A DNA stretch of 64,000 nucleotides, taken from contig OW818658.1 in the NCBI GenBank assembly GCA_942492815.1, positions 5,402,198 to 5,466,197 on the forward strand, written 5' to 3'. The DNA is from Candidatus Hydrogenedentales bacterium (GTDB lineage: Bacteria > Hydrogenedentota > Hydrogenedentia > Hydrogenedentales > JAEUWI01). Below the pieces are notes generated by a model, which was not told the origin of the DNA, searched no databases, and saw only the letters and a program-made list of their open reading frames with translations. Position numbers and translations under genes: made by a program. Shown piece by piece: positions 6,153-54,719 of this stretch (the first letter of the stretch is position 1; each line of letters opens with the position of its first letter).

Positions 6153-6258
6153 TCCCCACTTTGTCGGCCGCAAATGGCACGGCCATCACCGTGATCTCAC
6201 ACAAGATTGGCACGGCATCTTCCGTGCGCTCGCTCGTTCCTCGTTCCCAGGCTCTGCC

Positions 6259-7764
6259 CTTGTCATTACCCATAAGTTTTCTGTCCTAGTGCGATTAGAT
6301 ACCCTTCAAGTAGGAGCATGAGTTGGAGCCAACCTCGCCAGATACTGAGCCAGCCGGGTGGGCCGTCGTTTTTTCTCCCGACGTAGCCGCCCATCCGGGC
6401 GATGGCGCGCATGGCGGATGCGTTGGTCCACCCGCACTTGGGACGGCCGATGGTTTTTTCGAGGATGTCCAGCGCTTCGGGCCGCAGCAGGCCGGGGCTG
6501 ACGGCCTCGTCGGGCAGATTATTGGCGAGGAGCTTGAGTTGGAGCAGATCCGCAGCGATGGGCGCATGAATGGCGAGCAGGGCTTCGATCCGCTTGGCGC
6601 TGGACAACTGGCTGTCTTCGATATGGGTGCCCGTCTTGAGAGCTTTGTGATACTCCTCGATCAGCCAGCGGCACGCATAGGCGCCAATCACGCGCCGGGT
6701 CTGGATGAAGTGCTCGCATGGCCAACTGGTCAGCAAGACCCAGTGGATAGGCTCCTTTACATCCGCCGGCGGATCGATCTCGCGCACTTCCACCACGCTA
6801 GTCGACTGGGGGGCATGGCGTCCTGGCAAGTCGCGCGGCGGCACGATCTCGGTTTTCACCGCCCGTACTTCTACCCGCGCTTTTCGTGCGGCAACATCGG
6901 GACGGGCGCGCAAATCCAGCGTGTACCGCCCCTGCACGGGAGCATGGGCCACCGTCGCGAATACACTGCCAGCCTCCGATGTGGTGCGTCGAGCCTGCGC
7001 AGCGCGGATCACCCAATCCTGGCTTATAGGCCGCGTTACATTGTTCAAGCACCTCGAAGATATCGGACTCCCGATCCGACACCAACGTCCAACGTGCCCC
7101 TTCGGGCGGTGCTCCGGCTTCTGCCATGGCCCGGCCCCAGCGCCAGGACTCACCCGTTTTGCCTTTCGTGCGCTTTTCGATCCGTTTTACGCGCTTGCGT
7201 TCAGCCCGGGTGCCCTCGGGTTCCGTACGGGCCCAAGCCTGTTGTCCAAAGACTCCCACGAGCACCACTTGCGGTTCGTGTTCGTTACCCCATTGCGTGA
7301 TGCGTGCCGCCAGATTGGTATGAACCAGGAGCCCTTGGCTGGTATCGCATGTGAGCGGCCCCATTCCCGGAATCGCTCCTCGCTGCGTAAAGGACAGCGC
7401 TGTCGTGTCCTCGATCAACAAGTATTCGCCCGGCTCTCGGCACTGTTCGCGTGTCGCGCTTACATGTGGCTTCAATATACCTTCGTGCGTCACCTTCGGA
7501 TTACCCAACAGCCGATAAGCGGCTTTCAGCGCCATTCCATCGTTAATGGCCTGTGGAAGCGTACCACGAGGATTCCTGCGAATACACGAGGCCACCTCCA
7601 CAAGACGACGGAGCAAGCGAAGGTCACCCAACGCCGCGCCCCAAAAGTGCCGATGAGCCCACGTCGATGTATCCATAACCATACTCCCAGCAATAGCTTA
7701 GCAAGAAAATACTATATATGGTATGGATATTAAATATAAACAACAATATATGGGTAATGACAAG
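6259..7764 (-). mobile_element. IS4-family (IS50/Tn5-like) insertion sequence, 1506 bp
   Basis: Perfect 16-bp TIRs CTTGTCATTACCCATA (6259-6274) / TATGGGTAATGACAAG (7749-7764). 9-bp direct repeat GGCTCTGCC at 6250-6258 and 7765-7773. Confidence 0.95.
6266..7682 (-). pseudogene. IS4-family DDE transposase, frameshifted near 7025
   Basis: ORF 6798-7682 has the Tn5-like N-terminus (ALGDLR, LLIEDTT, SDRESD). ORF 6266-7153 has DWVIRA, YACRWLIEEYHKALK (YREK) and PPGWLSIWRGW. The two join by a 1-nt shift. Confidence 0.9.
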
Positions 7765-7831
7765 GGCTCTGCCTGGGAATGCAGTCCCCGGAGCTACGCT
7801 CCGAAGTCCACCCTCCATGATGGCCGATGCA

Positions 7832-8206
7832 TCACCTCACATACAAGCACCCGTGTGCTGTGCTTGGAAACACGCTCGGCTCCCGGTGTGCTACGCTATT
7901 CGGCAACGCCGATTCGTTGCCCGCCTTGCGCAGGCCGTGGAAGATGTCCGCCATTTCCTGTGTGATGATGTCTTCGAGCTTGAGTCGGCGAAGGATGTCG
8001 CTGAAATCGTCCTCGGGGAGCAGGCGCATACCGTCGTAGGCCGCCGCGTCCTCCGCCAGGGCTTCGGCGAGCTGGCGTAACTTGATCAGGGTGGTATTTG
8101 GGTCATCCAGGACATAGCGCTCCGCCCGCGCCGCGTATTCCAGGAGCTGGGGATCGTGATCGGCGAGGAAATTGAAGTTGGGCGATTTCAGGGCAGGTGC
8201 TGTCAT
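7832..8206 (-). pseudogene. Truncated DUF4145 (HsdR N-terminal, HEPN-like) paralogue: 98 homologous codons plus a 26-aa unrelated tail
   Basis: MTAPALKSPNF...LRKAGNE is 95/98 identical to the N-terminus of CDS 41103-42323. Homology ends at 7913. Confidence 0.8.
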
Positions 8207-8317
8207 GGGTGCTCTCTTTCGGTGGAGGTAGTTATACCGCAAGAGCGATGGCGGGATGCAAGGAAGAATGATTGGCCGGGAAAGGACGTAAAGAGTAACG
8301 CCCGGAATTTCGGAATG

Positions 8318-8557: not shown

Positions 8558-11500
8558 CTATTCTTTATCTTGGCCTATCGGCTGGAGTGCGATGGTGATA
8601 ACTTCGCCCAGTCGCGCGCCGTTGACCGGTTCCGATGTGGCGGTGACGTAGCCTTGGGCCGATACTCGGGCGGCGAATTCCGTCTGGCGGTCCGCCATCA
8701 GCCAGCATCGTGGCAAGATGGTGAAGTCGCCCGCGTCGGGGCCGCGGGTTATCTTCACCGTTTCGGTGCTGATCCAATTAAATTCACTGCCGACCATTCC
8801 CAGGCCGATCTCAACTTCTGGCACTGGGACCGAAAGGCCTGAGTTGGCGTCCACGACACGCCCGCGAAAGGGTTTCTTGAGAATCAAGTTGGCACGGAGC
8901 GGCTCATTGAAACTTGGTTCTACCTGGATGGACGCATCGAAATAGTCGCTATGGGCAAAGGTAAAGAGGATTCTACATTGCTGTGGCGTGTGGGGCATTT
9001 CAAAGTGCCCATCGGCACCGGTGCGAGTCTGCCGGAGCACGGCAGGAGGCCTGACAGAGTGCCAACCTCCAGCCGCATTGCCCTCAAGGTCGGCTAACCA
9101 TCCCTTGAAAGTGACGGTGACACCCTCCACGGGCGCACCCCCCGCATCGATAACCTCACCGCGCAGCACGGCGCCCTCGCTCAGGGTGATAGATATAGAC
9201 GATTTCCATGAATCCGCTAGCAGGGTGATCGCTTCCGGTGCGTGAACGTCGTTGAGCACGGTCATCGTCTGATCCTGCGTGTCGTCCACGTGGTGAATCG
9301 TGAACTTTCCGTTCTCGTCCGTGCGTGCGCTGGCAGTCTGTTCTTCCGAGCGCAGCTCGCGTATGTCACGACAAATCGTGGCCCCTGCGACTGGATTTCC
9401 CTCGCTATCCCGCACGGCACCTGATAGCGAAACGCCAGCCTTCACGACAAGCTCCGCCGTGTGATCGCGTAACTGAGATTCGGGTGGGGTTACGCGGCTT
9501 TCCAGCGAGAAATCGCTTACATATTCGTCGGTGCTCAGCGCGACCTTCAGGCGGTTCCAACCGGTTGGCATTCTAACCTCCCAGTGCCCGTCGCTCGCGG
9601 TGATGCCTCTATCGCCCATCGGCACGGTGTCTTCGTACTCACCTATCAACCCCACGCTCACGTTCGGTGCGGGTTCGCCGCTTTCGTTTACCACGCGGCC
9701 GCCCAGCGTGATCATCTGGTGTTCCGCATCCGGCGCGGCGGTGTAGTCCACGTCTATAGACGCGAGCCCGGGCAGCGCCGCGAGGAACTCTTTGTAACCT
9801 TCGGTGATCCGGGTTTTCTTCAAGGACAGGACAGCGAGTTTTTCATAAGGGTAAATATAGCGCAAGTCCTCGTTGGCAATTGGGGCGGCTTCCAGATCGA
9901 GCGCCAGAAGCCCGGTGAGAGCAGCGAGATCATCAAGCTGTTCGCCCGAGATTCCCGTAAAGGAGAGATCGAGGGATTGGAGTCGGTCCAGCTCGGCCAC
10001 GCACTGGAGGGGGCTTCGATTCAGACTCGGGACCGTAATATTGAGCGCGCCGAGTTGCGGGAGGGCCGTCGCGGCACGATTTGAAAGTTCCACGCCCCTC
10101 AGGCTGAGATGGCGCAATTGCTTCAGGACGACAAGGGGCGTGAGATCGCGGGTTTGGAGTACTGCGTCCTCCAGGTCTAGCCAGCGCAGGTTCGCCAGGG
10201 GCCTCAAGTGTTTCAGCTCCACATCGGGCACCCTGCAACGCCGGAGGCTGAGGGCTTCCAGGTCGGTCCACCCGGCGATGTGGCGCAGCGTGCCGCCGGA
10301 GACCCCTATGCCTCGAAGATTGAGGTACTGGATACCATCCGCGGGCAGGCTCGAAAAGGCTGGGGTTATTCCTAAAACGGCCACGTCCAGGCGGACCATT
10401 TTTCCCGCCGGAATCTCCACGTTGCCCTTTGCCTCGCCGATCAGTTCCCAGCCTTCTTCCGAGTGCATCGACGTTTTGGCCTCGGAAGTATAGGTATAGT
10501 CCATCGGATCATGGAGGTAGAGGGTGCCGAGGGAACTATCCGCCGGAAAGGAGAGCGTGCGCGCGGAAAGCACTTCCGCGCCCTTGCCTTTGTCACCTTC
10601 TTCTTGCTTCACGACTTCGCGGACCAAGGCCTTTCGGATCTTAAAGGTGTGGTTATCGTAGGTCAGCAGGTAGAACGATTCATCCTCCTCGACGGCGTCC
10701 GCAGGCTGGCTGTGCCCGCTGCGCAGGTGGACCATGTACGGCCGCTCTTTCACGGTCGGGCCCGTTGATTTCTCCAGTGAAAACCGGCGTGATCGCGTCG
10801 TGGGCAATTCCTGACTTTCGTCTTCCGGTGTCGTGAGTGTCACCGTCTCACCATCGATGACGACCGTTTTCTCCCGGACAGAGGTTTCTATGCCATAGGC
10901 TTGGGCAATCACGGCACGCGCTATCTCCGCAGCTCCCGTGCCGCCGTGCATACCGTGCTCCAGGAGTACGCTAACGGAAATCTTCGGCTCGCGATCCATC
11001 ACGCCCGCGACAAACCAGGCGTGGTCCCGCATCTCGTAGGGAATCTCCTCATCCGACGCGTATTTCGACCACTTTGTGGCGCTCATGATCTGCGCGCTTC
11101 CGGTTTTTCCAAGCACCTGAACGCCGTCGACTCCCGCGCGCCAGCCGGTGCCGGCGGGGTAGTCGGGCGGGGCCTTTTCCACGGTCTTGCGGAGTGCCGC
11201 GTGAAGGACTTCCAGTGTGGCGTCGCTGAGCATTCGTTCGCTGCGATCAGGAGGCAACTCCGCGTTCATACGGGGTGCGACCCGGAAGCCGCCGTTCACG
11301 ATGGCCGCCATCATCACGGCGTTCTGCAGGGGCGTGATGGCTGCGCTGCCCTGGCCGATGCTGAGATTGACGGTGTCGCCGGGATACCATTTCTGCTCGC
11401 TGACCGTTTTGTCGGCGTAGTTCTGCTTTTTCCAGTCCTGGCTGGGGATGAGGCCGCTGATTTCGCGGGGTAGATCGATGCCCGTGGAAATTCCCAGGCC

Positions 11501-13120
11501 AAACTTGCCGGCCCACTTGTTGATCTTGTCCACGCCCAGGGAGAGGCCCACGTTGTAGAAAAACACGTCGCAGGAATAGACCAGCGCGTCCGTCACATTA
11601 ACCCCGTCATGCCCGTCGCGCTTCCAGCAGCCCCACGCCCGGCCTCCCCCGTTGATTCGATAGGAACCGCCGCAGTAGTGCGTGGTGTCCGGCGTGATGA
11701 CGCCCTCCTCCAGCGCGGCGGCGGCGAGGAGGATCTTGAAGGTCGATCCCGGCGGATACTGTTCCTGGTAGGCCCGCGTGTAGGCGGGCCGGATCGGAGA
11801 TGCGTTGCCCGAGGCCTTCTGACCTTCGATCACCTCTTTCATCGTGCCAAAGGGCGCGCTGGCCATGGCGAGCACCGCGCCGGTATCGGCGTTCAGCACG
11901 ACGATGGCACCCGCCTGGCCTTCGAGCAGGGACTCACATTTTGCCTGCAATGCAGGAGCCTGCGGGCTTGGCAGTGATTGCTCGGTTTCCTCAGCCGCGG
12001 TTTCTTCCTTTGCTTCTTCACGATCGGCAATCGCACCACCCACGGCAAACACGGTGCCGGCGAACAGGATGAGGGATAGCACCGCCGCGATGCCGAGGCG
12101 CGCCGGGGTATTCAGGGAATTGCCGAGCAATGCGGCGATGCGCGTGTTGATCTGCGTGCGCGTGGCGAAGAGGCCGGTGGCCATGGTGCGCTGACGCTGT
12201 TGGCGGGCCTGGACGAGGATGGCGTAGAGCTGTTCCGCGTAGGCGGTGACGTCGTCGTCGGTGCGGACGACGGCGCGGTCACAGGCGAGCTCCACGGCGG
12301 CCTCCCAGCGTCGGCTGGCCCACCAGGTGACGGGGTGGAAGAAGAAGAGGATCTGGGCGAGGCGTCGCAGGGCATTGGCGATGGGATCGCGGTGTTTTAG
12401 GTGGGTCAGTTCGTGGCGCAGTGCCCAGGCGAGTGCGGTTTCATTCTCGGGCGCGTTGAGCCATTGTGGGATGACGATGGTGGAGCGGAACCAGCCCACC
12501 ACGGCGGGCGATTCGAGCTCCGCAGTCACGCGCAGGGGCGGAACGGTGCGCAACTGGAGCGAGGCCGCGCCTTGGGCGAGCGCCGTGGTGGCGTGGGTCG
12601 ACGGAGAGGTTGTGCGCGCGATAAAACGGCGCAGGCGGATGCGATCGAGCAGCGTGGAGCCAAGGAGGAGCACGACGCCCGCGAGCCAGAGGGACGCGAG
12701 GATGCGCGGTGTGAGTACGTTCCAGTTGATCGGTGTTCGCACGGGGATGGCGGTTGCGGCCGGCTTGGCGGGGGTGGCCGGAAGCGGTGCAGGCGGGAGT
12801 TCAAGGGCAGACATCTGCGGCATGGCCTCGCTGCGAACCGGCGGCGCTTCGGGCAATGGGGCTGCCGTGATGATCGGTTCGGGCGGCGCGAGGCGCAACA
12901 CGGGAACCACCGCGCCGAAAGTGAGCGTGACAATGGGTTTGGCCAATACGATGAGCCAGAGCATGGCGCAGGCGCGTGGCGAACGGATGCGAAAGACCGT
13001 GATGGCGAGCGCGACCGCGACGGCGAGTACGGCCAGCTCCGCGCTGGCGAAGAAGAGGCGCTCGAGGAGGGGGTGCGCGTCCATGGCGGCGAGAAAGGTG
13101 TTGAGCGTATCGGTGTTCAT
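8558..13120 (-). CDS. BlaR1-like M56 peptidase fused to a PBP2-type transpeptidase, leucine-rich repeats and carboxypeptidase-regulatory-like Ig repeats (1520 aa)
   Basis: ATG 13120 overlaps the blaI stop (ATGA). TM helices, HELTH at 12401-12415 with ELACD. STFK 11735-11746, SCD 11567-11575, KTG 11099-11107. LxxLxL LRRs about 9760-10330. Confidence 0.85.
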   Translation of the reverse strand: MNTDTLNTFLAAMDAHPLLERLFFASAELAVLAVAVALAITVFRIRSPRACAMLWLIVLAKPIVTLTFGAVVPVLRLAPPEPIITAAPLPEAPPVRSEAMPQMSALELPPAPLPATPAKPAATAIPVRTPINWNVLTPRILASLWLAGVVLLLGSTLLDRIRLRRFIARTTSPSTHATTALAQGAASLQLRTVPPLRVTAELESPAVVGWFRSTIVIPQWLNAPENETALAWALRHELTHLKHRDPIANALRRLAQILFFFHPVTWWASRRWEAAVELACDRAVVRTDDDVTAYAEQLYAILVQARQQRQRTMATGLFATRTQINTRIAALLGNSLNTPARLGIAAVLSLILFAGTVFAVGGAIADREEAKEETAAEETEQSLPSPQAPALQAKCESLLEGQAGAIVVLNADTGAVLAMASAPFGTMKEVIEGQKASGNASPIRPAYTRAYQEQYPPGSTFKILLAAAALEEGVITPDTTHYCGGSYRINGGGRAWGCWKRDGHDGVNVTDALVYSCDVFFYNVGLSLGVDKINKWAGKFGLGISTGIDLPREISGLIPSQDWKKQNYADKTVSEQKWYPGDTVNLSIGQGSAAITPLQNAVMMAAIVNGGFRVAPRMNAELPPDRSERMLSDATLEVLHAALRKTVEKAPPDYPAGTGWRAGVDGVQVLGKTGSAQIMSATKWSKYASDEEIPYEMRDHAWFVAGVMDREPKISVSVLLEHGMHGGTGAAEIARAVIAQAYGIETSVREKTVVIDGETVTLTTPEDESQELPTTRSRRFSLEKSTGPTVKERPYMVHLRSGHSQPADAVEEDESFYLLTYDNHTFKIRKALVREVVKQEEGDKGKGAEVLSARTLSFPADSSLGTLYLHDPMDYTYTSEAKTSMHSEEGWELIGEAKGNVEIPAGKMVRLDVAVLGITPAFSSLPADGIQYLNLRGIGVSGGTLRHIAGWTDLEALSLRRCRVPDVELKHLRPLANLRWLDLEDAVLQTRDLTPLVVLKQLRHLSLRGVELSNRAATALPQLGALNITVPSLNRSPLQCVAELDRLQSLDLSFTGISGEQLDDLAALTGLLALDLEAAPIANEDLRYIYPYEKLAVLSLKKTRITEGYKEFLAALPGLASIDVDYTAAPDAEHQMITLGGRVVNESGEPAPNVSVGLIGEYEDTVPMGDRGITASDGHWEVRMPTGWNRLKVALSTDEYVSDFSLESRVTPPESQLRDHTAELVVKAGVSLSGAVRDSEGNPVAGATICRDIRELRSEEQTASARTDENGKFTIHHVDDTQDQTMTVLNDVHAPEAITLLADSWKSSISITLSEGAVLRGEVIDAGGAPVEGVTVTFKGWLADLEGNAAGGWHSVRPPAVLRQTRTGADGHFEMPHTPQQCRILFTFAHSDYFDASIQVEPSFNEPLRANLILKKPFRGRVVDANSGLSVPVPEVEIGLGMVGSEFNWISTETVKITRGPDAGDFTILPRCWLMADRQTEFAARVSAQGYVTATSEPVNGARLGEVITIALQPIGQDKE

Positions 13121-13533
13121 GATTGGTTGCCCCTTTTTTTGCGTTCTTTGATCAGGGCCTGAATGGCCTCCAGGTCGGCCTCGTCGATGTCGTGATCGTT
13201 GATCAGACAGGCGATGGCGCGCCTCGGACTGCCATCGAGGAGGCGCCGGGTAATCTGCCGCAGCGTGCGCGCTGCAAAGTCGTTGCGCGAGACCGTGGCC
13301 CGGAGGCGGAAGCCCCGCTCCGTGGTGGCCACGGGCTCCAGGTAACCCTTCTCGCGAAGATTCGCCAAGACTGTTCGGATGGTGGTCTTGGCGAGCGGTT
13401 CGTTGGCATCGTTGTAGGCGTCGATGACCTCGGCTGAGCTGCATTCGCCCAAGCGCCACACGGTGGCCATCACGTCCTCTTCCAGGCGGGTGAGGTCATT
13501 GGGACGCTTTTCGTCGTTCTTTTTACGGACCAT
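13117..13533 (-). CDS. BlaI/MecI/CopY family transcriptional repressor
   Basis: LTRLEEDVMATVW...SSAEV...TTIRTVLANLREKGYL winged helix. Directly upstream of the M56 gene. Confidence 0.9.
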   Translation of the reverse strand: MVRKKNDEKRPNDLTRLEEDVMATVWRLGECSSAEVIDAYNDANEPLAKTTIRTVLANLREKGYLEPVATTERGFRLRATVSRNDFAARTLRQITRRLLDGSPRRAIACLINDHDIDEADLEAIQALIKERKKRGNQS

Positions 13534-38542: not shown

Positions 38543-38808
38543 GGGGGTATTCCTTTCTTGCGCGGGCGGATACTACGTGGCCCGCGCGTTGGCGGCCGAG
38601 TAGGTTCGGGTGGGCCGCCGTGCTTTGGTTGTCGTTTTACGTTCTTTAGTTGGCGGAATGATACCGGGTGAATGTACGGCAATTGTTAGAGAAGGGTTAA
38701 TTTTCAGGAGATAGGACGGATTCGACCGATAGGACGGATTCTGGCAGTCGGTCCTATCGGTCGAATCGGTCCTGTTTCTCCGTTATACTTGGCACCGAAA
38801 GGCACCTC

Positions 38809-39675
38809 GTGACTCCAGGCAAACTCTACATCGGAACGGCAGGCTGGTCCTACGCGGACTGGAACGGCGTCGTGTATCCCGAGGCCCGCAGCAAGGGCTT
38901 TCATCCGTTGCGCTGGCTGGCCCAGTGGTTCAACTGCGTGGAGATCAATTCGAGCTTCTACCATCCGCCCCAGGCGAAGCATGCGGCGTCATGGGCAAAG
39001 CTGGTGGACGATATCGAGGATTTTCAGTTCGCCGCGAAGCTGTGGGAGCGCTTCACGCACCACCGGGACTCGTGGCCCACGTCGCACGAGATCGCGCAAT
39101 ATAAGGACGGAATCGCACCGCTGGTCGAGGCCGGGCGGCTGGGTGCCCTGCTGGTGCAGTTTCCCTGGAGTTTCCGCCGCACGCCGGAGAACCGGGTGTG
39201 GCTAGGGCGAATCGCGGAGTGCTTCGAGGGCTATCCGCTGGTGGTGGAAGTGCGCCACGAGACGTGGAACACGCCGGAGGTCTTCGACGGCCTGCGCGCC
39301 CGGGAGATCGCCTTCTGCAATATCGATCAGTCGCTGTTTGACGATTCCATCGCCCCATCGGACCACGTCACCGCGCCGCTGGCTTACGTGCGCTTTCACG
39401 GGCGCAACAAGGCGAACTGGTTCAAGGAGGGCGTGAGCCAGAACGAGCGTTACGACTACCTCTACAGCGAGGAAGAACTCAAGCCGTGGCTGGGGTTGAT
39501 CAAGAACATGCAGGGCAAGGCGAAGAACGTCTATGTGGTGACCAACAACCACTTCCATGGCCAGGCCGTGGCGAATGCCCTGGAAATACAGGCCACGCTG
39601 GGGGGAGCGCGCTTTCAACTGCCCGAGCACCTGCTGGCGGCTTATCCGAGGTTGCGGGGGATTTCATCGGACTGA
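38809..39675 (+). CDS. DUF72 family protein
   Basis: Motifs IGTAGWSY, VEINSSFY, LVQFP, VEVRH, YVRFHGRN, YDYLYS, NNH..GQA. Confidence 0.92.
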   Translation: MTPGKLYIGTAGWSYADWNGVVYPEARSKGFHPLRWLAQWFNCVEINSSFYHPPQAKHAASWAKLVDDIEDFQFAAKLWERFTHHRDSWPTSHEIAQYKDGIAPLVEAGRLGALLVQFPWSFRRTPENRVWLGRIAECFEGYPLVVEVRHETWNTPEVFDGLRAREIAFCNIDQSLFDDSIAPSDHVTAPLAYVRFHGRNKANWFKEGVSQNERYDYLYSEEELKPWLGLIKNMQGKAKNVYVVTNNHFHGQAVANALEIQATLGGARFQLPEHLLAAYPRLRGISSD

Positions 39676-39743
39676 TCAGACCGATCGGACCGATCAGATA
39701 GGTCAGATCGGTCTGATCCGTCCGATCCGTCCGATCTCTTGTC

Positions 39744-40993: not shown

Positions 40994-41102
40994 ATTTTTG
41001 CCCGATGCCTTTGTGCTCTTTGCGTTCTTTTGCGGCCAATCATCTTCCTTGCATCCCGCCATCGCTCTTGCGGTATAACTATCCCACCGAAAGAGAGCGC
41101 CC

Positions 41103-42323
41103 ATGACCCCACCTGCCCTGAAATCGCCCAACTTCCATTTCCTCGCCGATCACGATCCCCAGCTTCTGGAGTATGCGGCGCGGGCGGAGCGCTATGTCCT
41201 CGACGACCCGAACACCACCCTGATTAAATTGCGCCAACTCGCCGAGGCCCTGGCGGAGGACGCGGCGGCCTACGACGGCATGCGCCTCCTTCCCGAAGAC
41301 GATTTCAGCGACATCCTCCGTCGCCTCAAGCGCGAGGACATCATCACGCAGGAAATGGCGGACATCTTTCATGGCCTGCGCAAGGCGGGCAATGAAGCGG
41401 CGCACGAGGGCGGCGGCACGCGGCAAGACGCCGTGTCGCAATTGAAACTGGCCCACCGCCTCGCGGTGTGGTTTCACCGGGCCTTTCGCAATCCGGCATT
41501 CAAGCCGAAGCCCTTCCTGCTGCCGCCCGCGCCGGACGGTGGTTCCCCGGAGCTGAAGGAGGAGCTGGAGCGTCTGCGCAAGGCCCGCTGGGAAGCGGAG
41601 CGCGAGGCCGACGAAACGGAAGAGGCCCTGGAAGTAGCCGAGCGCAAGCGCGCGGCGGCGGAAGCGAAGGCGGCGGAGCTCTACGCCGACCTGGAAGCCG
41701 CCCTGGCCCTCGTACACGATAGCGACCCGCGCCACGAACGCATCGCGCGGCGGCATGAAGAGACGGTGGAGCAACTCCGCGCCGAAGCCCACGCGGCCAG
41801 CCACGAGGAGCGCGCCGCGCGCCAGCATCAGGCCCGCAGCGCCGCGCGCGCCTTCGACCTTTCGGAGGAAGAAGCCCGCGACCTGATCGACGCCCAACTC
41901 CGCGCGAGAGGCTGGGAGGCGGACGCCGTCGTGTTCACCTGGGCCCACAGCGCGCGCCCCGAGGCCGGCCGCAACATGGCCATCGCGGCCGTCCCCACCA
42001 GCGCCGGCCCCGCCGACTACATCCTCTATTGCGGACTGCGCGCCGCCGCCGTCATCGAGGCCAAGCGAAGCAACACCGATCTCCGCGCCGCTCTGGATGA
42101 CGCCGCACGCTACGGCAAGGCCTATCAGATCCTTGCGGACGAGACCATTGCCGAAGACTCCAAAACGGGCCACGCCATCCCCCTCCTCTTCGCCAGCAAT
42201 GGAAAGCCCTTCACCAGCGAATCCGATCCCCTCAGCGGCATCTGGATGCGGGATATTCGCAACGGCAAAACCCTGGCCCTGAAAGATTGGCCAACTCCGG
42301 AAGAATTGGAAAGTTCGCTGTAG
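41103..42323 (+). CDS. DUF4145 (HEPN-like) + coiled coil + HsdR_N PD-(D/E)XK nuclease; no helicase/motor domain
   Basis: EcoKI-HsdR-like N-terminus (SPNFHFL, KLRQLAE, LRKAGNEAAH). Charged helical linker. LIDAQLRARGW...GPADY...VIEAKR, then stop at codon 407. Confidence 0.85.
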   Translation: MTPPALKSPNFHFLADHDPQLLEYAARAERYVLDDPNTTLIKLRQLAEALAEDAAAYDGMRLLPEDDFSDILRRLKREDIITQEMADIFHGLRKAGNEAAHEGGGTRQDAVSQLKLAHRLAVWFHRAFRNPAFKPKPFLLPPAPDGGSPELKEELERLRKARWEAEREADETEEALEVAERKRAAAEAKAAELYADLEAALALVHDSDPRHERIARRHEETVEQLRAEAHAASHEERAARQHQARSAARAFDLSEEEARDLIDAQLRARGWEADAVVFTWAHSARPEAGRNMAIAAVPTSAGPADYILYCGLRAAAVIEAKRSNTDLRAALDDAARYGKAYQILADETIAEDSKTGHAIPLLFASNGKPFTSESDPLSGIWMRDIRNGKTLALKDWPTPEELESSL

Positions 42324-43291: not shown

Positions 43292-43460
43292 CAGGCGGCC
43301 ACGCTGGGAGGATCAATTGCACACGCGGATTTCCGTGTGCGGATTGCAGGGACAACAGCGACGACAGGGACATCAGGAACAAAGAGAGGAACCAATCCTG
43401 CCGTCCCTGTCGTCGCTGCCGTCCCTGTAAGACTCCACAGAGGTCCGCGCCGCCCAGCCA

Positions 43461-43971: not shown

Positions 43972-45129
43972 GTGCCTTCCCGAAGTTTAGCAGGGACCCC
44001 GCAGGTGGTACAATGCGCCGCAGTTCGCCAGCGCAAGCACCAGCACCCCGGCAGCGGGTACGTGGCAGTCCCGAGGAGCAGTACCATCAAGATCACCGAG
44101 AACGAGACCCTCGCCGAGCGCAAGCAGGCGATTCTTGCGCACCTGAACCAGTTCCCCTTCCGCCCCGCGTGGTGGTTGCGCAATTGCCACGCCCAGACCA
44201 TCTGGGGACCCGTGTTCCGCCGCCCACCGGCCATGGACTACCACAAGGAAGTGTGGGACACGCCCGATGGCGACGAGCTCGCCCTCTATTTCTTTCCCGG
44301 CGACGCGGACAAGCCCTGGGTGCTGCTGTTGCACGGTCTCGAAGGCCACATCAATTCCTTTTATCTGCCCGGCTTCAACCAGGCCTTCCACGCCCTCGGC
44401 TGGAATGTGGTCACCCTGATCTTTCGGTCCTGCGACGGCGGCATCAACAAGGCGAAGCGCGTCTACCACATGGGCGAAACCTCCGACCTCGATTTCGCCG
44501 TGCGTCAGCTTCGCGAAGAGCGCGGCGTGGACAAGCTCTACATCGCGGGCATGTCCCTTGGCGCAAACGTCCTCTGCAAGTGGCTCGGCGAACTCGGCGA
44601 CAACGTGCCGGAGTACGTGGCCGGTACGGCCGCCCTTTCCCCGCCCTTTCGCCCAGAGATCTCCGTCAGCCTCTTCGAGAAGGCCTTCTTCGGCATCTAC
44701 AACCGCCGCTTCCTCGGCACCCTCATCCCCAAGGCGCTGGAGAAAGAGCGCCAATTCCCCGGCTGCATCGACGTGGAGAAAGTGCGCAACTGCAAAAGCT
44801 TCCACGTCTACGACACCGAAGTCACCGCCCGCCTCCACGGCTACCGCGACGCCGTGGACTACTGGGAACAAGTCGGCTGCCACCAGTTCCTCGCGGACAT
44901 CCGCGTGCCCACCCTCCTCAACACCTCCGCCGACGACGCATTCAATCCCGCCGACACCATCCCCCGCGAAATCGCCGACGCCTCGGACTACCTCTATCCC
45001 CTCTGGACCACCCACGGCGGCCACGCGGGCTTTGTCTACGGTGCCTGGCCCTGGAAGGCAAAGTACTGGCAGGAAGAACAATTGGTGCGCTTTTTTGTGG
45101 CGCTCGACGACCCAACGGGACCGTCCTGA
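43972..45129 (+). CDS. YheT-family alpha/beta hydrolase (start uncertain, possibly GTG 44062)
   Basis: Motifs HAQTIW, WDTPDGD, LHGLEG, GMSLG, SADD, GGHAGF. Confidence 0.88.
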   Translation: MPSRSLAGTPQVVQCAAVRQRKHQHPGSGYVAVPRSSTIKITENETLAERKQAILAHLNQFPFRPAWWLRNCHAQTIWGPVFRRPPAMDYHKEVWDTPDGDELALYFFPGDADKPWVLLLHGLEGHINSFYLPGFNQAFHALGWNVVTLIFRSCDGGINKAKRVYHMGETSDLDFAVRQLREERGVDKLYIAGMSLGANVLCKWLGELGDNVPEYVAGTAALSPPFRPEISVSLFEKAFFGIYNRRFLGTLIPKALEKERQFPGCIDVEKVRNCKSFHVYDTEVTARLHGYRDAVDYWEQVGCHQFLADIRVPTLLNTSADDAFNPADTIPREIADASDYLYPLWTTHGGHAGFVYGAWPWKAKYWQEEQLVRFFVALDDPTGPS

Positions 45130-45423
45130 ACGCCAGGCCCCTCAACAAAGAGGCGTGATCGAAGACCAAATCACTCCACCCAGACCGATCAAGCCCCACT
45201 GCGCGTTCGGGACCGTCCCGCGCTTTTGAGGGACGTACCGCCGCACAGGCCCCCTGAGCACCAATGTAACCCCCACACCCTCGCCCCGACCCCAGTCGAG
45301 CGAAGCCTGCTCCAAAGCGGCGGCATGTCCCCGTGGATGTTAAATCCCGACGCGGGGCAATCCAATCCGCCTCATCGTTCTGAACGAGTGCTGGAGCCTC
45401 CCGCGCAGTGTTGATCTCTCTGG

Positions 45424-45467
45424 TTGACGGTTGGTCGATATTCGGCGACAATAGCGAGACAAGGAGG
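45424..45467 (+). promoter_or_regulatory. Putative sigma70 promoter TTGACG-N17-GACAAT and RBS AAGGAGG
   Basis: -35 at 45424-45429, -10 at 45447-45452, RBS at 45461-45467. Confidence 0.5.
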
Positions 45468-45473
45468 CAAACC

Positions 45474-45662
45474 ATGGAAAAGAGAGACGAGTTCAAACCC
45501 TTAATTGAATGGCCCACCCATGGGGAACATAAGCGCTGTCAAGAATCAACGGCGCTCTTGAATATACTCGCCATAGATCGAAAAGAGATCGAGACCGGAG
45601 AATACCAGCTCGCATCCGAGTTTTTTGATGAGTTGCGCAGAGAGAGGCAGGCCAATCCATGA
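45474..45662 (+). CDS. Small protein (62 aa) resembling the C-terminal half of Phd/YefM-type antitoxins
   Basis: Strong RBS. QESTALLNILAIDRKEIETG..ASEFFDELRR resembles antitoxin C-terminal helices (recognition only). Confidence 0.45.
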   Translation: MEKRDEFKPLIEWPTHGEHKRCQESTALLNILAIDRKEIETGEYQLASEFFDELRRERQANP

Positions 45663-45853
45663 ACTGGGAATACAAGACCATCAAGATCGGTGCAACGGGC
45701 TTCATGGGGGGCAAAGTGGACGAGATAGAACTTGACACGCTAATGAATCGACTCGGTTCGCAGGGGTGGGAACTGACCACGGCTTTCGACACGAATCAAT
45801 CATACGGACAAACCCGAGACGTCGTGGTGATCTTCAAGCGGCCCAGAGGATAG
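45659..45853 (+). CDS. DUF4177 family small protein
   Basis: WEYKTI...LDTLMNRLGSQGWEL...IFKRP. ATGA-coupled to the upstream ORF. Confidence 0.85.
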   Translation: MNWEYKTIKIGATGFMGGKVDEIELDTLMNRLGSQGWELTTAFDTNQSYGQTRDVVVIFKRPRG

Positions 45854-45861
45854 CGCGGCGT

Positions 45862-45949
45862 GGGGACTGCCTCCCGCCGCAACAGAACCTCCGCCGCGCA
45901 AGCGCTCCAGCACCTTCCATCGGCGGGTGGCTGTACACAGGAGAAACGG
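45862..45949 (+). repeat. Half copy of the 185-bp element found at 51690-52059
   Basis: GGGGACTGCCTCCC.CCGCA ... CGCCGCG.AAGCG ... CGGCGGGTGGCTGTAC....GAGAAACGG is collinear with the reverse complement of 51970-52059. Confidence 0.7.
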
Positions 45950-46360
45950 TAATACGGGGGACGGTCCCCGCACGCCTGGCGGCCCTTCCTCCACGAAGTC
46001 ATCCCGGATTGGTCAGGTAAATTTCGAAAGGCCAGGCGGCCTTTCGTGCAGGACGGTCCCCGCGAGCCGACGGGACCGTCCTGAACGCAAGGGCACTCGA
46101 CAACGGGTCGTGAACCTGTGCCAAACACGCAAGCCCGAACAAAGTAAAGCCTGCCAGGCGTTCGGGACCGTCCCGTGAAGTTTTACTACGGGGGACGGTC
46201 CCGCACGCCTGGAAGCCCGCCCTCAACAGAGGCGTCTTTAATTGGTCGAGTGAATCCCTTGCGCTCCAAGGGGCCTTTCGTTCGGGACGGTCCCCTTGGG
46301 GTGAATCCTACTGTCGGATTGCAGCGTCTAACCCATTAACGCAACCCAAAGGACACCGCC

Positions 46361-54280: not shown

Positions 54281-54351
54281 CTGAAGAAACGCTCACGCAG
54301 AATGCGTTTTCACTTCAAACGCTATCCACTGGAAGCATCAACAATACTGAC

Positions 54352-54520
54352 TGAACCACGAATGGACACGAATTCACACGAATAAGAAAAACGGCAAACC
54401 ACAAAGAACGCACAGGCCCCTCCTTTGTGCTCTTTGCGTTCTTTGTGGTTTGATCTCAAACCTGCTTTTGGAACGATGTTCAATTCTTATTCGTGTGAAT
54501 TCGAGTCCATTCGTGGTTCA
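54352..54520. repeat. Nested inverted pairs: outer 37-bp arms (CACGAAT x3), inner 18-bp arms (CAAACCACAAAGAACGCA)
   Basis: Outer 54352-54388 / 54484-54520, 36/37. Inner 54395-54412 / 54435-54452, 18/18. Confidence 0.85.
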
Positions 54521-54719
54521 GCTCCTTTGAGGATTTACACCGTCGGGGCTCTGGACCATTGACGAGGACCATGGAATACGTTGATGTATCCCGCGCACCT
54601 CCCTGACGACGGGACGGCCACACGCGCTGACGTGCCTGCCGCTACCACCAATCTAGTTTAGGCCTTGGGTCTGCGCCGCCAGTTACGAGTGCGCCTGCGT
54701 GCGTCAGTCCCTATGTGAA

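Follow-up and report, generated by a model that had tools for sequence, protein, structure and literature searches.

Type I restriction enzymes are textbook systems, in which the C-terminal region of HsdR docks this subunit onto the methyltransferase core. DUF4145 falls within the HEPN superfamily and occurs fused to REase/helicase proteins of restriction-modification (R-M) systems (PMC3710099), and for HEPN domains fused to R-M enzymes an analogy with PrrC has been proposed (PMC3710099). In the PrrC/EcoprrI system, a type Ic R-M enzyme guards PrrC, a HEPN anticodon nuclease that stays latent (PMC3710099). This hypothesis of a PrrC-like hidden RNase dates from 2013, and no test of it was found in the literature searched. 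Stand-alone proteins joining HEPN to an REase fold, and monogenic DUF4145 defence proteins, have already been described (PMC3710099; PMC10799925; PMC13017515; bioRxiv 10.64898/2026.07.06.735840). Among them, RAZR is an abortive-infection protein with a zinc finger and a DUF4145 HEPN domain, a latent RNase that has no antitoxin and is activated by assembly on phage rings; its DUF4145 domain is the one tested biochemically, and R146 and H154 are required for both defence and RNA cleavage (PMC13017515). BxaP is a BREX-associated single protein with DUF4145 and HEAT-like parts that acts in phage defence (PMC10799925), and Ishtar1 and Ishtar2 are monogenic anti-plasmid proteins in which a HEPN domain of the DUF4145 or DUF3644 type at the N-terminus is joined to an alpha/beta domain at the C-terminus (bioRxiv 10.64898/2026.07.06.735840). 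The EC042_2821 HEPN+REase family was defined computationally, and its C-terminal domain was classed as REase-fold (PMC3710099).

In this work, we analyzed a gene from Candidatus Hydrogenedentales bacterium that combines such elements in one protein. The window, that is, the whole stretch of DNA analyzed, comprises 64,000 nt (GCA_942492815.1, OW818658.1, positions 5,402,198-5,466,197, forward strand). On its forward strand, at 41103..42323, it carries a CDS with an ATG start for a motor-less HsdR-head protein of 406 aa, conserved from M1 among orthologues; we call this gene copy B, to tell it apart from a broken second copy (copy A) in the same window. The protein matches NCBIfam NF008521 (EcoKI-type HsdR, PRK11448) with an E-value of 3e-100 over model positions 3-390 of 1123, and the PADLOC REase_I model over positions 5-335 of 1170. 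It is 38-45% identical to full-length relatives of ~1130 aa encoded in hsdR-hsdM-hsdS operons.

The DUF4145/HEPN-fold helical domain spans aa 12-128 (41136..41486, forward strand), and the Pfam DUF4145 match (PF13643, aa 27-110; E 8.4e-11) scores 42.2 bits against a cut-off of 23.1, above threshold. Its helices are predicted by AlphaFold2 with pLDDT 77-92. Foldseek matched them to the HEPN structures 2hsb (TM 0.64), 2q00 (TM 0.75, rmsd 2.7), HepT 6m6u/5yep, 7ae8 and Csm6 6tug, with probabilities up to 1.0 but weak whole-model E-values (at least 0.04). The model thus points to an all-alpha HEPN fold for this domain, in line with the literature placement of DUF4145 in the HEPN superfamily and its fusions to R-M proteins (PMC3710099), both of which the preliminary description of this ORF had taken as established. 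There is no solved structure of this head, and a family profile found nothing in the PDB at E<=0.01; phmmer matches to FEN1/XPG were located in the coil and were rejected as chance. The HEPN motif R93-K-A-G-N97-E-A-A-H101 (aa 93-101; 41379..41405, forward strand) has R-x7-H spacing, which exceeds the canonical Rx4-6H and is identical to that of RAZR (PMC13017515). All of the 20 orthologues keep R93, N97 and H101, which are conserved also in 59 full-length HsdRs, so that the motif described earlier as intact proved to be so. It is reasonable to read R93-x7-H101 as the putative catalytic site; its equivalence to R146/H154 of RAZR is drawn from the shared Pfam family and identical spacing, not from a direct alignment.

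A Pro-rich linker (aa 129-148) precedes a predicted antiparallel coiled-coil hairpin (aa 149-250; 41547..41852, forward strand), which AlphaFold2 builds from helices at aa 149-168, 173-202, 209-231 and 234-250, that is, from long helices 149-202 and 209-250 (monomer pTM 0.57; coil pLDDT 50-66 over aa 140-210). This segment consists of 25% Ala, 22% Glu and 15% Arg. In an alignment of the short-form clade with full-length HsdRs, the sequence RLRKARWEAER (aa 157-167; 41571..41603, forward strand) stands out as a clade-specific motif: every member of the short clade has K160, R162, W163, E166 and R167, which are unconserved in the 59 full-length HsdRs, and the short clade has thus gained RLRKARWxAER. 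An internal resemblance of the HEPN and coil motifs over 45 nt (76% identity) was set aside as most likely chance in Ala/Glu/Arg-rich sequence.

The HsdR-type PD-(D/E)xK nuclease domain (aa 255-406; 41865..42320, forward strand) is backed by the NF008521 alignment and by Foldseek, which matched the HsdR fragment 3h1t with a probability of 1.00, and its predicted catalytic residues are D305 (42015-42017) and E319-A-K321 (42057-42065). Pfam HSDR_N (PF04313) matches aa 303-368 with 20.6 bits, under its cut-off of 25.1; despite this sub-threshold score, the alignment to NF008521 and the structural match of the model make the PD-(D/E)xK homology clear, and REase_I agrees, bearing out the nuclease assignment made earlier. 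D305, Y306, E319, K321, N366 and G367 are invariant. In the equivalent of the RecB-type QxxxY motif, DAARY (42099-42113, forward strand), Q is replaced: Q333 is present in 88% of the full-length relatives and is E or D in all members of the short clade, where Y337 is Y or H. Other residues conserved in the full-length proteins are changed in the short clade as well, namely E296/W297 (the EW motif of AIAEWPT), W354 and F361. EcoR124I needs the QxxxY glutamine for normal DNA cleavage (PMC2475608), and with this glutamine replaced, the DNase activity of the short forms may be altered or weak.

The protein ends in DWPTPEELESSL, followed directly by the stop codon, whereas the full-length relatives read WYTPEGLFQLLQQD... 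at the same point and continue for ~25 more residues to the helicase Q-motif 'LRDYQ'. No ResIII/DEAD Pfam match was found in the copy B protein, and only 68 nt separate its stop codon from the end of a convergent MptE-like gene. The preliminary description had seen here the layout of the first third of an EcoKI-type HsdR, with RKAGNEAAH, D305 and E-A-K at the positions given above, a coiled coil, a clean stop ahead of the motor, and no hsdM, hsdS or helicase remnant; each of these observations held, by the NF008521 alignment, the long AlphaFold2 helices, the distance to the Q-motif and the tblastn searches described below.

More than 20 relatives of 53-91% identity are equal in length, none of them having lost any of the six catalytic residues, and those with a named source all come from Hydrogenedentota MAGs. 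In an alignment of 20 orthologues (53-91% identity, 397-427 aa), R93, N97, H101, D305, E319 and K321 are invariant, and all 20 short forms end 8-30 aa past WPTPEEL with differing tails. Scanning species-representative genomes with patterns invariant in the short-form family returned six carriers, all Hydrogenedentota MAGs, in which the short form closes with a true TAG or TGA stop. For pairs with unsaturated dS (0.38-0.77), overall dN/dS is 0.145-0.20, and by part it is 0.02-0.09 (HEPN domain), 0.12-0.20 (coil) and 0.22-0.38 (nuclease domain); purifying selection therefore acts on all three parts, most strongly on the HEPN domain, and the frame has stayed open across lineages with dS >1.5. In a neighbor-joining tree, built without support values, the short clade is monophyletic with a long stem and nested inside the ~1130-aa full-length HsdRs, and in an exhaustive search the family forms one 50%-identity cluster at 706 bits, the next match scoring 415 bits. 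These sequence comparisons indicate a single origin of the short clade within full-length HsdRs. It had been suggested beforehand that copy B is a functional gene and not debris, a view that the purifying selection, the real stops and the common boundary sustain; the close homologues all end at this boundary, none of them is a full-length HsdR, and they occur without hsdRMS. We are therefore highly confident that copy B is a selected, functional, motor-less gene.

Short forms also occur outside this clade. Three other clean ones keep R..N...H but lose E-x-K (P0080, L/Q; P0153, F/T; P0119, K to H), indicating that some lineages can do without the nuclease site. Neither P0088 nor P0040 has close relatives, each being a singleton: no motor adjoins P0088, and P0040 is a sister short form from Acidobacteriota that shares the strand of lexA and lies 72 nt downstream of it. 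The same tree without support values may suggest several independent origins of short forms. Genuine pseudogenes exist for contrast, P0043 and P0063 being frameshifted and P0043 still having hsdM/S downstream, and P0024 is directly followed by an IS3-type transposase that apparently cuts it. Among mobile elements, Foldseek against the viral structures of BFVD gave nothing significant; in PHROGs only the uncharacterised phrog_16694 (a 1010-position profile) matched, over the coil and nuclease part; a phage collection yielded two weak HsdR-like matches; and 56 plasmid records matched, none covering at least 80% of the query, most of the best 15 of the 56 being annotated as hsdR.

Copy B appears to be transcribed on its own. 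A conserved upstream region (41018..41102, forward strand) travels with it, and nucleotide homology to the orthologue loci sets in at 41018 and ceases exactly at the copy B stop codon. This region contains a promoter-like element, TTGCAT and TATAAC separated by a 19-nt spacer (41049-41054 / 41074-41079, forward strand), and the RBS GAAAGAGAG (41089-41097, forward strand); the TTGCA...GGTATAAC block is conserved in seven orthologue loci with differing neighbours. A simple sigma-70 and terminator scan called neither a promoter nor a terminator for copy B, the promoter-like element being missed because of its 19-nt spacer. Judged by these elements, copy B is predicted to be monocistronic, with its own promoter-like element, and its transcription to begin ~25 nt upstream of the ATG. 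Regulation by the SOS response was considered and rejected, as no known type of LexA box was seen by eye in the promoter region and adjacency to lexA is limited to P0040.

Copy A (7907..8295, reverse strand), recovered by blastn and tblastn, lies at the ancestral syntenic site: its upstream neighbours (BlaR1-like M56, PenR, a PKD giant protein and DUF4838) are in the same order as in the orthologue loci. It retains codons 1-100 with the ATG at 8206 and ends exactly before the His101 codon; the RBS and the same promoter are also kept (-35 at 8261-8256, -10 at 8236-8231). It is 90.5% identical to 41016-41402 over 389 nt (blastn) and 96% identical to aa 1-100 (tblastn), and the dS between the two copies is 0.48. 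An insertion sequence of the IS4/Tn5 family with a frameshifted transposase (6244..7779, reverse strand; Pfam Tnp_DNA_bind and Dimer_Tnp_Tn5), bounded by 31-nt terminal inverted repeats (6244-6274 / 7749-7779, 90% complementary), is located 127 nt beyond the break. With the broken copy at the ancestral site, copy B is therefore probably a relocated promoter-plus-ORF unit. An exact 23-nt repeat crosses the left edge of this unit (41008..41030, forward strand), and its only other copy (54422-54444) lies within a 171-nt nested palindrome. A broken resident copy beside an IS, together with an intact, diverged copy elsewhere, fits the turnover often seen in accessory genes. The dS contrast by which copy B would be a xenologue of L009-like origin (0.23 vs 0.45-0.48 over 100 codons, roughly estimated at ~1.8 standard errors) is suggestive only, and no clean empty site was found, the relatives of the downstream MptE-like gene (L026, L027) having other neighbours on both sides.

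Taken together, we consider there to be about an even chance that copy B, an apparently independently transcribed gene derived from the HsdR head, encodes a one-protein immune effector targeting nucleic acids. The head of an EcoKI-type HsdR would have been freed by the loss of the helicase motor and of the C-terminal assembly region, an event that would have happened once, in the ancestor of a Hydrogenedentota clade. A motor-less protein would not translocate DNA and, without the C-terminal region, would not dock onto HsdM2S; it would therefore have no type I enzyme function and no need of a methylase. The HEPN domain, probably dimeric, would provide the main activity as a metal-independent RNase, while the PD-(D/E)xK domain might cut DNA or merely bind it, and the stalk with RLRKARWxAER might serve oligomerisation or trigger sensing, the RNase being held latent. 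In this respect the HEPN domain would be an "unleashed" version of the PrrC-like back-up RNase proposed by Anantharaman et al., and RAZR, BxaP and Ishtar, as single-gene DUF4145 immunity proteins, would offer a parallel. More tentatively, it is possible that a classical HsdR head was turned into an autonomous protein with two nucleases that depends on neither methylase nor motor and that one lineage has long kept.

The genomic context leaves room for a different role. Copy B is surrounded by genes for hydrolases, oxidoreductases and glycan metabolism and does not lie in a defence island; no antitoxin-like partner or conserved neighbour was found among the loci compared, and PADLOC gave no match to RAZR (PD-T7-4) or any other Abi model, only to REase_I and the candidate PDC-M16A. 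Of the uncoupled effector proposed in the preliminary description, the uncoupling from type I R-M stood, since no hsdRMS was found in the window or at the 18 short-form loci, whereas the abortive-infection or toxin role gained no backing from a defence island or an antitoxin. The comparison of neighbourhoods that had been called for gave the same picture of housekeeping- and glycan-type neighbours, partial synteny and an absent hsdRMS locus. The short-form gene is found at differing sites among loci, and the orthologue neighbourhoods show partial synteny across a clade spanning ~50% protein divergence; such clade-wide conservation with partial synteny is unusual for defence genes. An HsdR head exapted as a lineage-specific housekeeping enzyme, for RNA processing or turnover or for DNA repair or recombination, and unrelated to immunity, would account for this. 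Such neighbours, clade-wide synteny and a slowly evolving HEPN domain fit a housekeeping function no less well than an arms-race gene. Partial synteny extends to orthologues of as little as 60% identity, e.g. with PSCyt/PSD1-DUF1501-GFO_IDH, and also with BlaR1-like M56 or PKD/DUF4838; the neighbours are non-defence everywhere, with no partner or antitoxin; the position of P0040 relative to lexA hints at an SOS link; and certain HEPN proteins, e.g. Las1, are housekeeping RNases. Nevertheless, we regard this reading as rather unlikely, because the DUF4145 proteins studied experimentally all act in defence (PMC13017515; PMC10799925; bioRxiv 10.64898/2026.07.06.735840), only the six species-representative genomes were positive despite search patterns invariant in the family, this genome shows gain and loss, one copy being destroyed while another occupies a new site, and linkage to lexA was observed only once, for a singleton protein.

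Compared with the immune-effector proposal, a catalytically silent sensor or regulator, in which one or both sites are kept for binding nucleic acid, e.g. as a regulator or decoy, appears improbable. The loss of E-x-K in P0080, P0153 and P0119, which keep R..N...H, and the loss of the QxxxY glutamine in the short clade would agree with it, but the invariance of D305, E319, K321, R93, N97 and H101 over dS >1.5 is hard to explain without catalysis.

A split type I enzyme, with the head encoded here and a motor/C-terminal fragment and HsdM-HsdS elsewhere in the genome, is more improbable still. Like that of a split gene, the break coincides exactly with a domain boundary, and the view covered 64 kb here and at most 10 kb on each side of the orthologues. 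Against this, tblastn with motor, HsdM and HsdS sequences from full-length relatives found nothing at E<=0.01 in 294 kb, i.e. the window plus 18 short-form loci, and in the control loci L023 and L024 the full-length relatives are followed by hsdM and hsdS. Besides, E296/W297, Q333, W354 and F361 are changed, the pattern expected once the interplay of nuclease and motor is lost, and the gene, which carries a promoter of its own, moves by itself.

That copy B is what decay has left of a full-length hsdR, a pseudogene whose frame is open by accident, can be dismissed: truncated HsdR fragments of similar length exist (P0043, P0063, P0024) and copy A in the same window is itself broken, but for copy B the selection analysis already refutes this reading (dN/dS 0.145-0.20, frame open beyond dS 1.5), in addition to the invariant catalytic residues, the conserved promoter, the differing tails past the common boundary and the lack of remnant DNA downstream.

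Returning to the one-protein immune effector, the short clade constitutes a natural experiment in which the motor, the methylase and the specificity subunit are gone while the HEPN-coil-nuclease head is strongly selected under its own promoter. If the HEPN domain alone is an active RNase, the N-terminal DUF4145 domain of EcoKI-type HsdRs would suffice as an effector by itself, and, if this is true, a PrrC-like RNase would be hidden in ordinary type I R-M enzymes and provide them with a second defence line. The naturally minimised copy B protein would be the simplest system for this hypothesis: its compact 406 aa give direct access to whether the HEPN domain of HsdR is an RNase, and also to HEPN-DNase crosstalk within one polypeptide. 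It further bears on whether R-M parts can be reused for methylation-independent immunity or as housekeeping nucleases. Should the defence role be true, it would be an HsdR-derived addition to the single-protein HEPN defence factors RAZR, BxaP and Ishtar.

With EcoKI-type HsdR (NF008521/PRK11448), the copy B protein shares the order of DUF4145-HEPN, coiled coil and PD-(D/E)xK, and R..N...H and D...E-x-K are conserved in both. It differs in having neither the SF2 motor nor the C-terminal region nor hsdM/hsdS partners, in scoring 336.8 bits against a family cut-off of 729 for NF008521, in the loss of EW and of the QxxxY glutamine and the gain of the invariant coil motif by the short clade, and in being monocistronic with its own promoter. 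PrrC/EcoprrI shares the concept of a type I-linked HEPN RNase that is inactive until restriction fails; PrrC, however, is a separate ABC-ATPase-HEPN protein of another HEPN family and depends on R-M, whereas copy B has no R-M complex. By its sequence, copy B resembles the monogenic DUF4145-HEPN systems in being a single gene with no obligatory partner and with the R/H motif. RAZR (PD-T7-4) is likewise a single gene with the same R-x7-H spacing (R146/H154) in DUF4145 (PMC13017515), but it has an N-terminal zinc ribbon and lacks both the coiled coil and PD-(D/E)xK. BxaP is also one protein with an N-terminal DUF4145 domain; it differs by its HEAT-like C-terminus and its BREX association, a related arrangement being seen only at the distant locus L014. 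Ishtar and the EC042_2821 family, as likened by description, have the same stand-alone two-domain logic of an N-terminal HEPN and a C-terminal alpha/beta domain. The Ishtar genes, in contrast, are patchy and often located near defence genes or in integrons, and the copy B protein is set apart from both Ishtar and EC042_2821 by its long coiled coil, its derivation from HsdR and its housekeeping neighbourhood.

The gene at 41103-42323 on the forward strand (hereafter copy B) begins with ATG and encodes a 406-residue protein resembling the head of HsdR, the R subunit of EcoKI-type restriction enzymes. On re-reading the sequence, the HEPN motif RKAGNEAAH (residues 93-101, 41379-41405) and the nuclease residues D305 (42015) and E319-A-K321 (42057-42065) lie exactly where the preliminary description had put them, and its proposed layout of DUF4145, coil and PD-(D/E)XK domain was recovered by Pfam, NCBIfam, PADLOC, AlphaFold2 and Foldseek. 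Pfam detected DUF4145 over threshold at residues 27-110 (E 8.4e-11) and HSDR_N, under threshold, at 303-368. The NCBIfam model of EcoKI-type HsdR, NF008521 (1123 positions, cut-off 729 bits), aligned through positions 3-390 (E 3e-100) with a score of 337 bits, a partial and below-cut-off match that is expected for a protein consisting only of the first third of HsdR; PADLOC agrees, positions 5-335 of the 1170 in REase_I being matched. In an AlphaFold2 model built from 20 orthologues (mean pLDDT 78.8), a helical domain (residues 12-128) is joined by a Pro-rich linker to two long helix pairs (149-250), and an alpha/beta domain (255-406) follows. In Foldseek comparisons the first domain resembles the HEPN proteins 2hsb and 2q00 (TM 0.75), HepT toxins and Csm6, and the last the HsdR fragment 3h1t.

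This short form is very probably a functional, selected, motor-less gene. The initial search for homologues gave 22 proteins of 53-91% identity, all 397-427 residues long save for three shorter fragments; a single one carried an organism name, that of a Candidatus Hydrogenedentes MAG. The form ends in genuine TAG or TGA stops in six species-representative Hydrogenedentota genomes, and all 20 members of our alignment stop 8-30 residues past a common WPTPEEL boundary, with tails that are all different. By the Nei-Gojobori method, restricted to pairs with unsaturated dS (0.38-0.77), dN/dS was 0.145-0.20 for the whole gene, 0.02-0.09 for the HEPN domain, 0.12-0.20 for the coiled coil and 0.22-0.38 for the nuclease domain.

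Nucleotide homology between copy B and its orthologues extends from 41018, 85 nt upstream of the ATG, exactly to the stop codon. The upstream block, which contains a conserved TTGCAT-N19-TATAAC element and the ribosome-binding site GAAAGAGAG, is kept even at loci with different neighbouring genes. Copy B lies among genes for an alpha/beta hydrolase, DUF72, a HAD hydrolase, an MptE-like protein and RraA, and the orthologues among those for a BlaR1-like M56 protein, a giant PKD protein, DUF4838, GFO_IDH oxidoreductases, DUF1501/PSD1 and AXE1; across the window and the orthologue loci we found no neighbour common to all and no defence or antitoxin-like genes. Stretches of shared gene order point to mainly vertical descent. 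The DUF72 gene (38809-39675) is flanked by two imperfect palindromes (38708-38778 and 39666-39726) made of GATCGGTC/GACCGATC-like repeats, a hairpin with 35-nt arms separates the MptE-like and RraA genes (43344-43430), and about eight copies of a GGGACCGTCCC-type palindromic element, REP-like hairpins that include two repeat units spaced by 234 nt, lie in intergenic sequence (45117-46295) surrounding a small DUF4177 gene (45659-45853).

Copy B has two catalytic motifs that are intact, under selection and set in recognisable folds, together with its own transcription signals, and motor and partners are absent from the 294 kb searched; we infer that its product would act as an autonomous effector. 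The HEPN domain, as the most constrained part of the protein, would be the main catalytic unit, probably as a dimer. DNA would be cut or bound by the PD-(D/E)XK domain, whose properties the loss of the QxxxY glutamine would have altered, and the stalk with its new motif might mediate oligomerisation or trigger sensing, keeping the enzyme latent. Whether this effector serves immunity we regard as evenly balanced. The main rival, a lineage-specific housekeeping RNase or DNase, is favoured by synteny, slow evolution and unremarkable neighbouring genes, and perhaps by the position of one homologue (P0040) just downstream of lexA; we consider it unlikely, though it deserves to be kept in mind. A catalytically silent binder is improbable, R93, N97, H101, D305, E319 and K321 being invariant in all 20 aligned members.

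Still less credit is given to a split enzyme. Full-length relatives run about 25 residues beyond the end of the copy B protein to the LRDYQ helicase Q-motif, and queries with motor, HsdM and HsdS gave zero tblastn matches at E<=0.01 in 294 kb comprising the window and 18 short-form loci, in keeping with the clean stop without motor, hsdM or hsdS reported earlier. As a positive control, canonical hsdM and hsdS follow the full-length genes of a Myxococcales (L023, 1129 aa) and an Acidobacteria (L024, 1118 aa) locus. The preliminary description had conceded that copy B would be a decayed remnant if all homologues were full-length HsdR and close relatives had an intact hsdRMS locus at this place; the same-length homologues, their common boundary and the low dN/dS speak against this, and a pseudogene is a very remote prospect, since low dN/dS with a frame open across lineages at dS above 1.5 is not pseudogene behaviour. 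True decayed HsdRs of similar length do occur in databases and look different from the short clade: P0043 and P0063 bear frameshifted nonsense tails, and P0043, with EcoEI_R_C, hsdM and hsdS still present downstream, is a clear example. Its frameshifted hsdR head is carried by a mobilisable element with relaxase, MobC and an ArdC-like protein (L013, 10001-16360). P0024 reaches 28 residues deeper into the linker; an IS3-type transposase directly follows and apparently cut it.

A profile search run exhaustively over 1.84 billion representatives yielded 3823 relatives, and most strong matches are HsdRs of about 1130 aa. At 50% identity the short family falls into a single cluster, which scores 706 bits; the match after it scores 415 bits. 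Neighbour joining on the head region places all Hydrogenedentota short forms in one long-stemmed clade within the full-length proteins, with P0040, the single Acidobacteriota short form, as sister. The best matches of P0040 are Hydrogenedentota short-form proteins, and by eye it shares with them the C-terminal end, the change of EW to DV and that of Q333 to E; its sister position, best matches and these three derived characters fit a single truncation and a subsequent inter-phylum transfer. P0040 (385 aa, both motifs intact; MAG GCA_039184055.1, L008 9213-11158) is the sole member of the short clade outside Hydrogenedentota, a singleton without close relatives; its gene lies 72 nt downstream of lexA on the same strand, and an SOS link is possible. 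Relative to 59 full-length heads, the short clade retains the two catalytic motifs but has changed E296/W297 of AIAEWPT, Q333 (the glutamine of the RecB-type QxxxY motif), W354 and F361, all conserved in full-length proteins, whereas coil residues K160, R162, W163, E166 and R167 are newly invariant, giving the motif RLRKARWxAER. The changed and gained residues are, as read from this alignment, the signature of a protein adapted to life without a motor. The HEPN motif and this clade-specific coil motif are the protein's two most invariant; their DNA, LRKAGNEAAHEGGGT (41376-41420) and LRKARWEAEREADET (41574-41618), is 76% identical over 45 nt, which may be chance in Ala/Glu/Arg-rich sequence. 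Other apparently clean short forms occur elsewhere in the HsdR tree (P0088, P0080, P0119 and P0153): all four stop at the same W-P-(T/S)-P boundary as the clade and retain R..N...H, while E-x-K is gone in P0080 and P0153 and its K is H in P0119. P0088 is a singleton with intact motifs; its flanking genes lack Pfam matches, and no motor gene lies beside it in locus L025.

When orthologue loci were compared with the whole window, their upstream neighbours (DUF4838, the giant PKD protein, PenR and BlaR1-like M56) mapped, in conserved order, to 8.5-23 kb, as did the start of the gene. A second copy (copy A, 7907-8295, reverse strand) consists of the same promoter as in copy B, the RBS and codons 1-100, is 90.5% identical to 41016-41402 in nucleotides (96% in protein), and breaks off exactly ahead of the His101 codon; the window holds no further pieces of the gene. 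Between the break and an IS4/Tn5-family element (6244-7779, 31-nt inverted repeats, frameshifted transposase) lie 127 nt of unrelated sequence, and the break is therefore not a simple insertion. Copy A is thus the genome's resident copy, at the ancestral syntenic site, and has been destroyed; copy B is a unit of promoter and ORF located elsewhere. In loci L026 and L027, which carry relatives of the MptE-like neighbour of copy B, the flanking genes differ on either side, and neither offers a clean empty site for copy B. Across codons 1-100, dS is 0.48 between copies A and B (25 synonymous and 4 non-synonymous differences), too high for recent duplicates, 0.23 between copy B and its L009 orthologue (14 and 3) and 0.45 between copy A and that orthologue (24 and 3), a short comparison that is suggestive of copy B having been derived from a related lineage. 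The left edge of the copy B unit falls within an exact 23-mer repeat, CCTTTGTGCTCTTTGCGTTCTTT (41008-41030). Its sole other copy in the window forms the inner hairpin's 3' arm in a nested palindrome of 171 nt (54351-54521; outer arms 38 nt, 97% complementary; inner arms 21 nt, 95%; dG -32.6 kcal/mol, z -5.7), which looks like a MITE or terminator and is absent from every fetched locus. Near copy A, 8558-13459 (reverse strand) encodes a very large BlaR1-like protein, 1633 aa by ORF and preceded by a PenR-like repressor, with Peptidase_M56 sensor, penicillin-binding transpeptidase, LRR and CarboxypepD_reg domains; shorter versions adjoin the orthologues in L009 and L005.

In line with the preliminary description, published work places DUF4145 among the HEPN families and finds it often joined to type I REase/helicase proteins (PMC3710099, PMC3632139), and HEPN domains fused to R-M enzymes have been proposed to be PrrC-like latent RNases freed on restriction failure (PMC3710099). 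The copy B protein differs from HsdR in having neither motor nor partners and in its low model score, and the literature searches turned up no account of a motor-less HsdR head kept as a conserved form. In general, a HEPN domain and a nuclease encoded by one gene have ceased to be a surprise, a stand-alone family of HEPN and REase fold, EC042_2821, having been described already (PMC3710099). The copy B protein is a sound candidate open to testing, and it provides a minimal setting for the hypothesis that EcoKI-type HsdRs contain a working RNase. RAZR has a DUF4145 domain that cuts ssRNA and depends on R146 and H154 (PMC13017515), whose R-x7-H spacing equals that of R93 and H101, and no PADLOC sequence model ties the two proteins. 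BxaP (PMC10799925) and Ishtar (bioRxiv 10.64898/2026.07.06.735840) are single-gene DUF4145 defence proteins, likened to copy B by description. Reminiscent of the BREX-associated BxaP is the locus of P0056 (398 aa, L014 949-4219), a DUF4145 and coiled-coil head on an unrelated C-terminal domain, directly followed by a 679-aa DUF4145 protein, both a short way upstream of a BREX cluster (BrxE, BrxA, BrxB, BrxC, PglX-like). By analogy with these systems, the copy B protein may work like a monogenic immunity protein of HEPN plus a second domain, an HsdR by descent, with an immune role as likely to hold as to fail.
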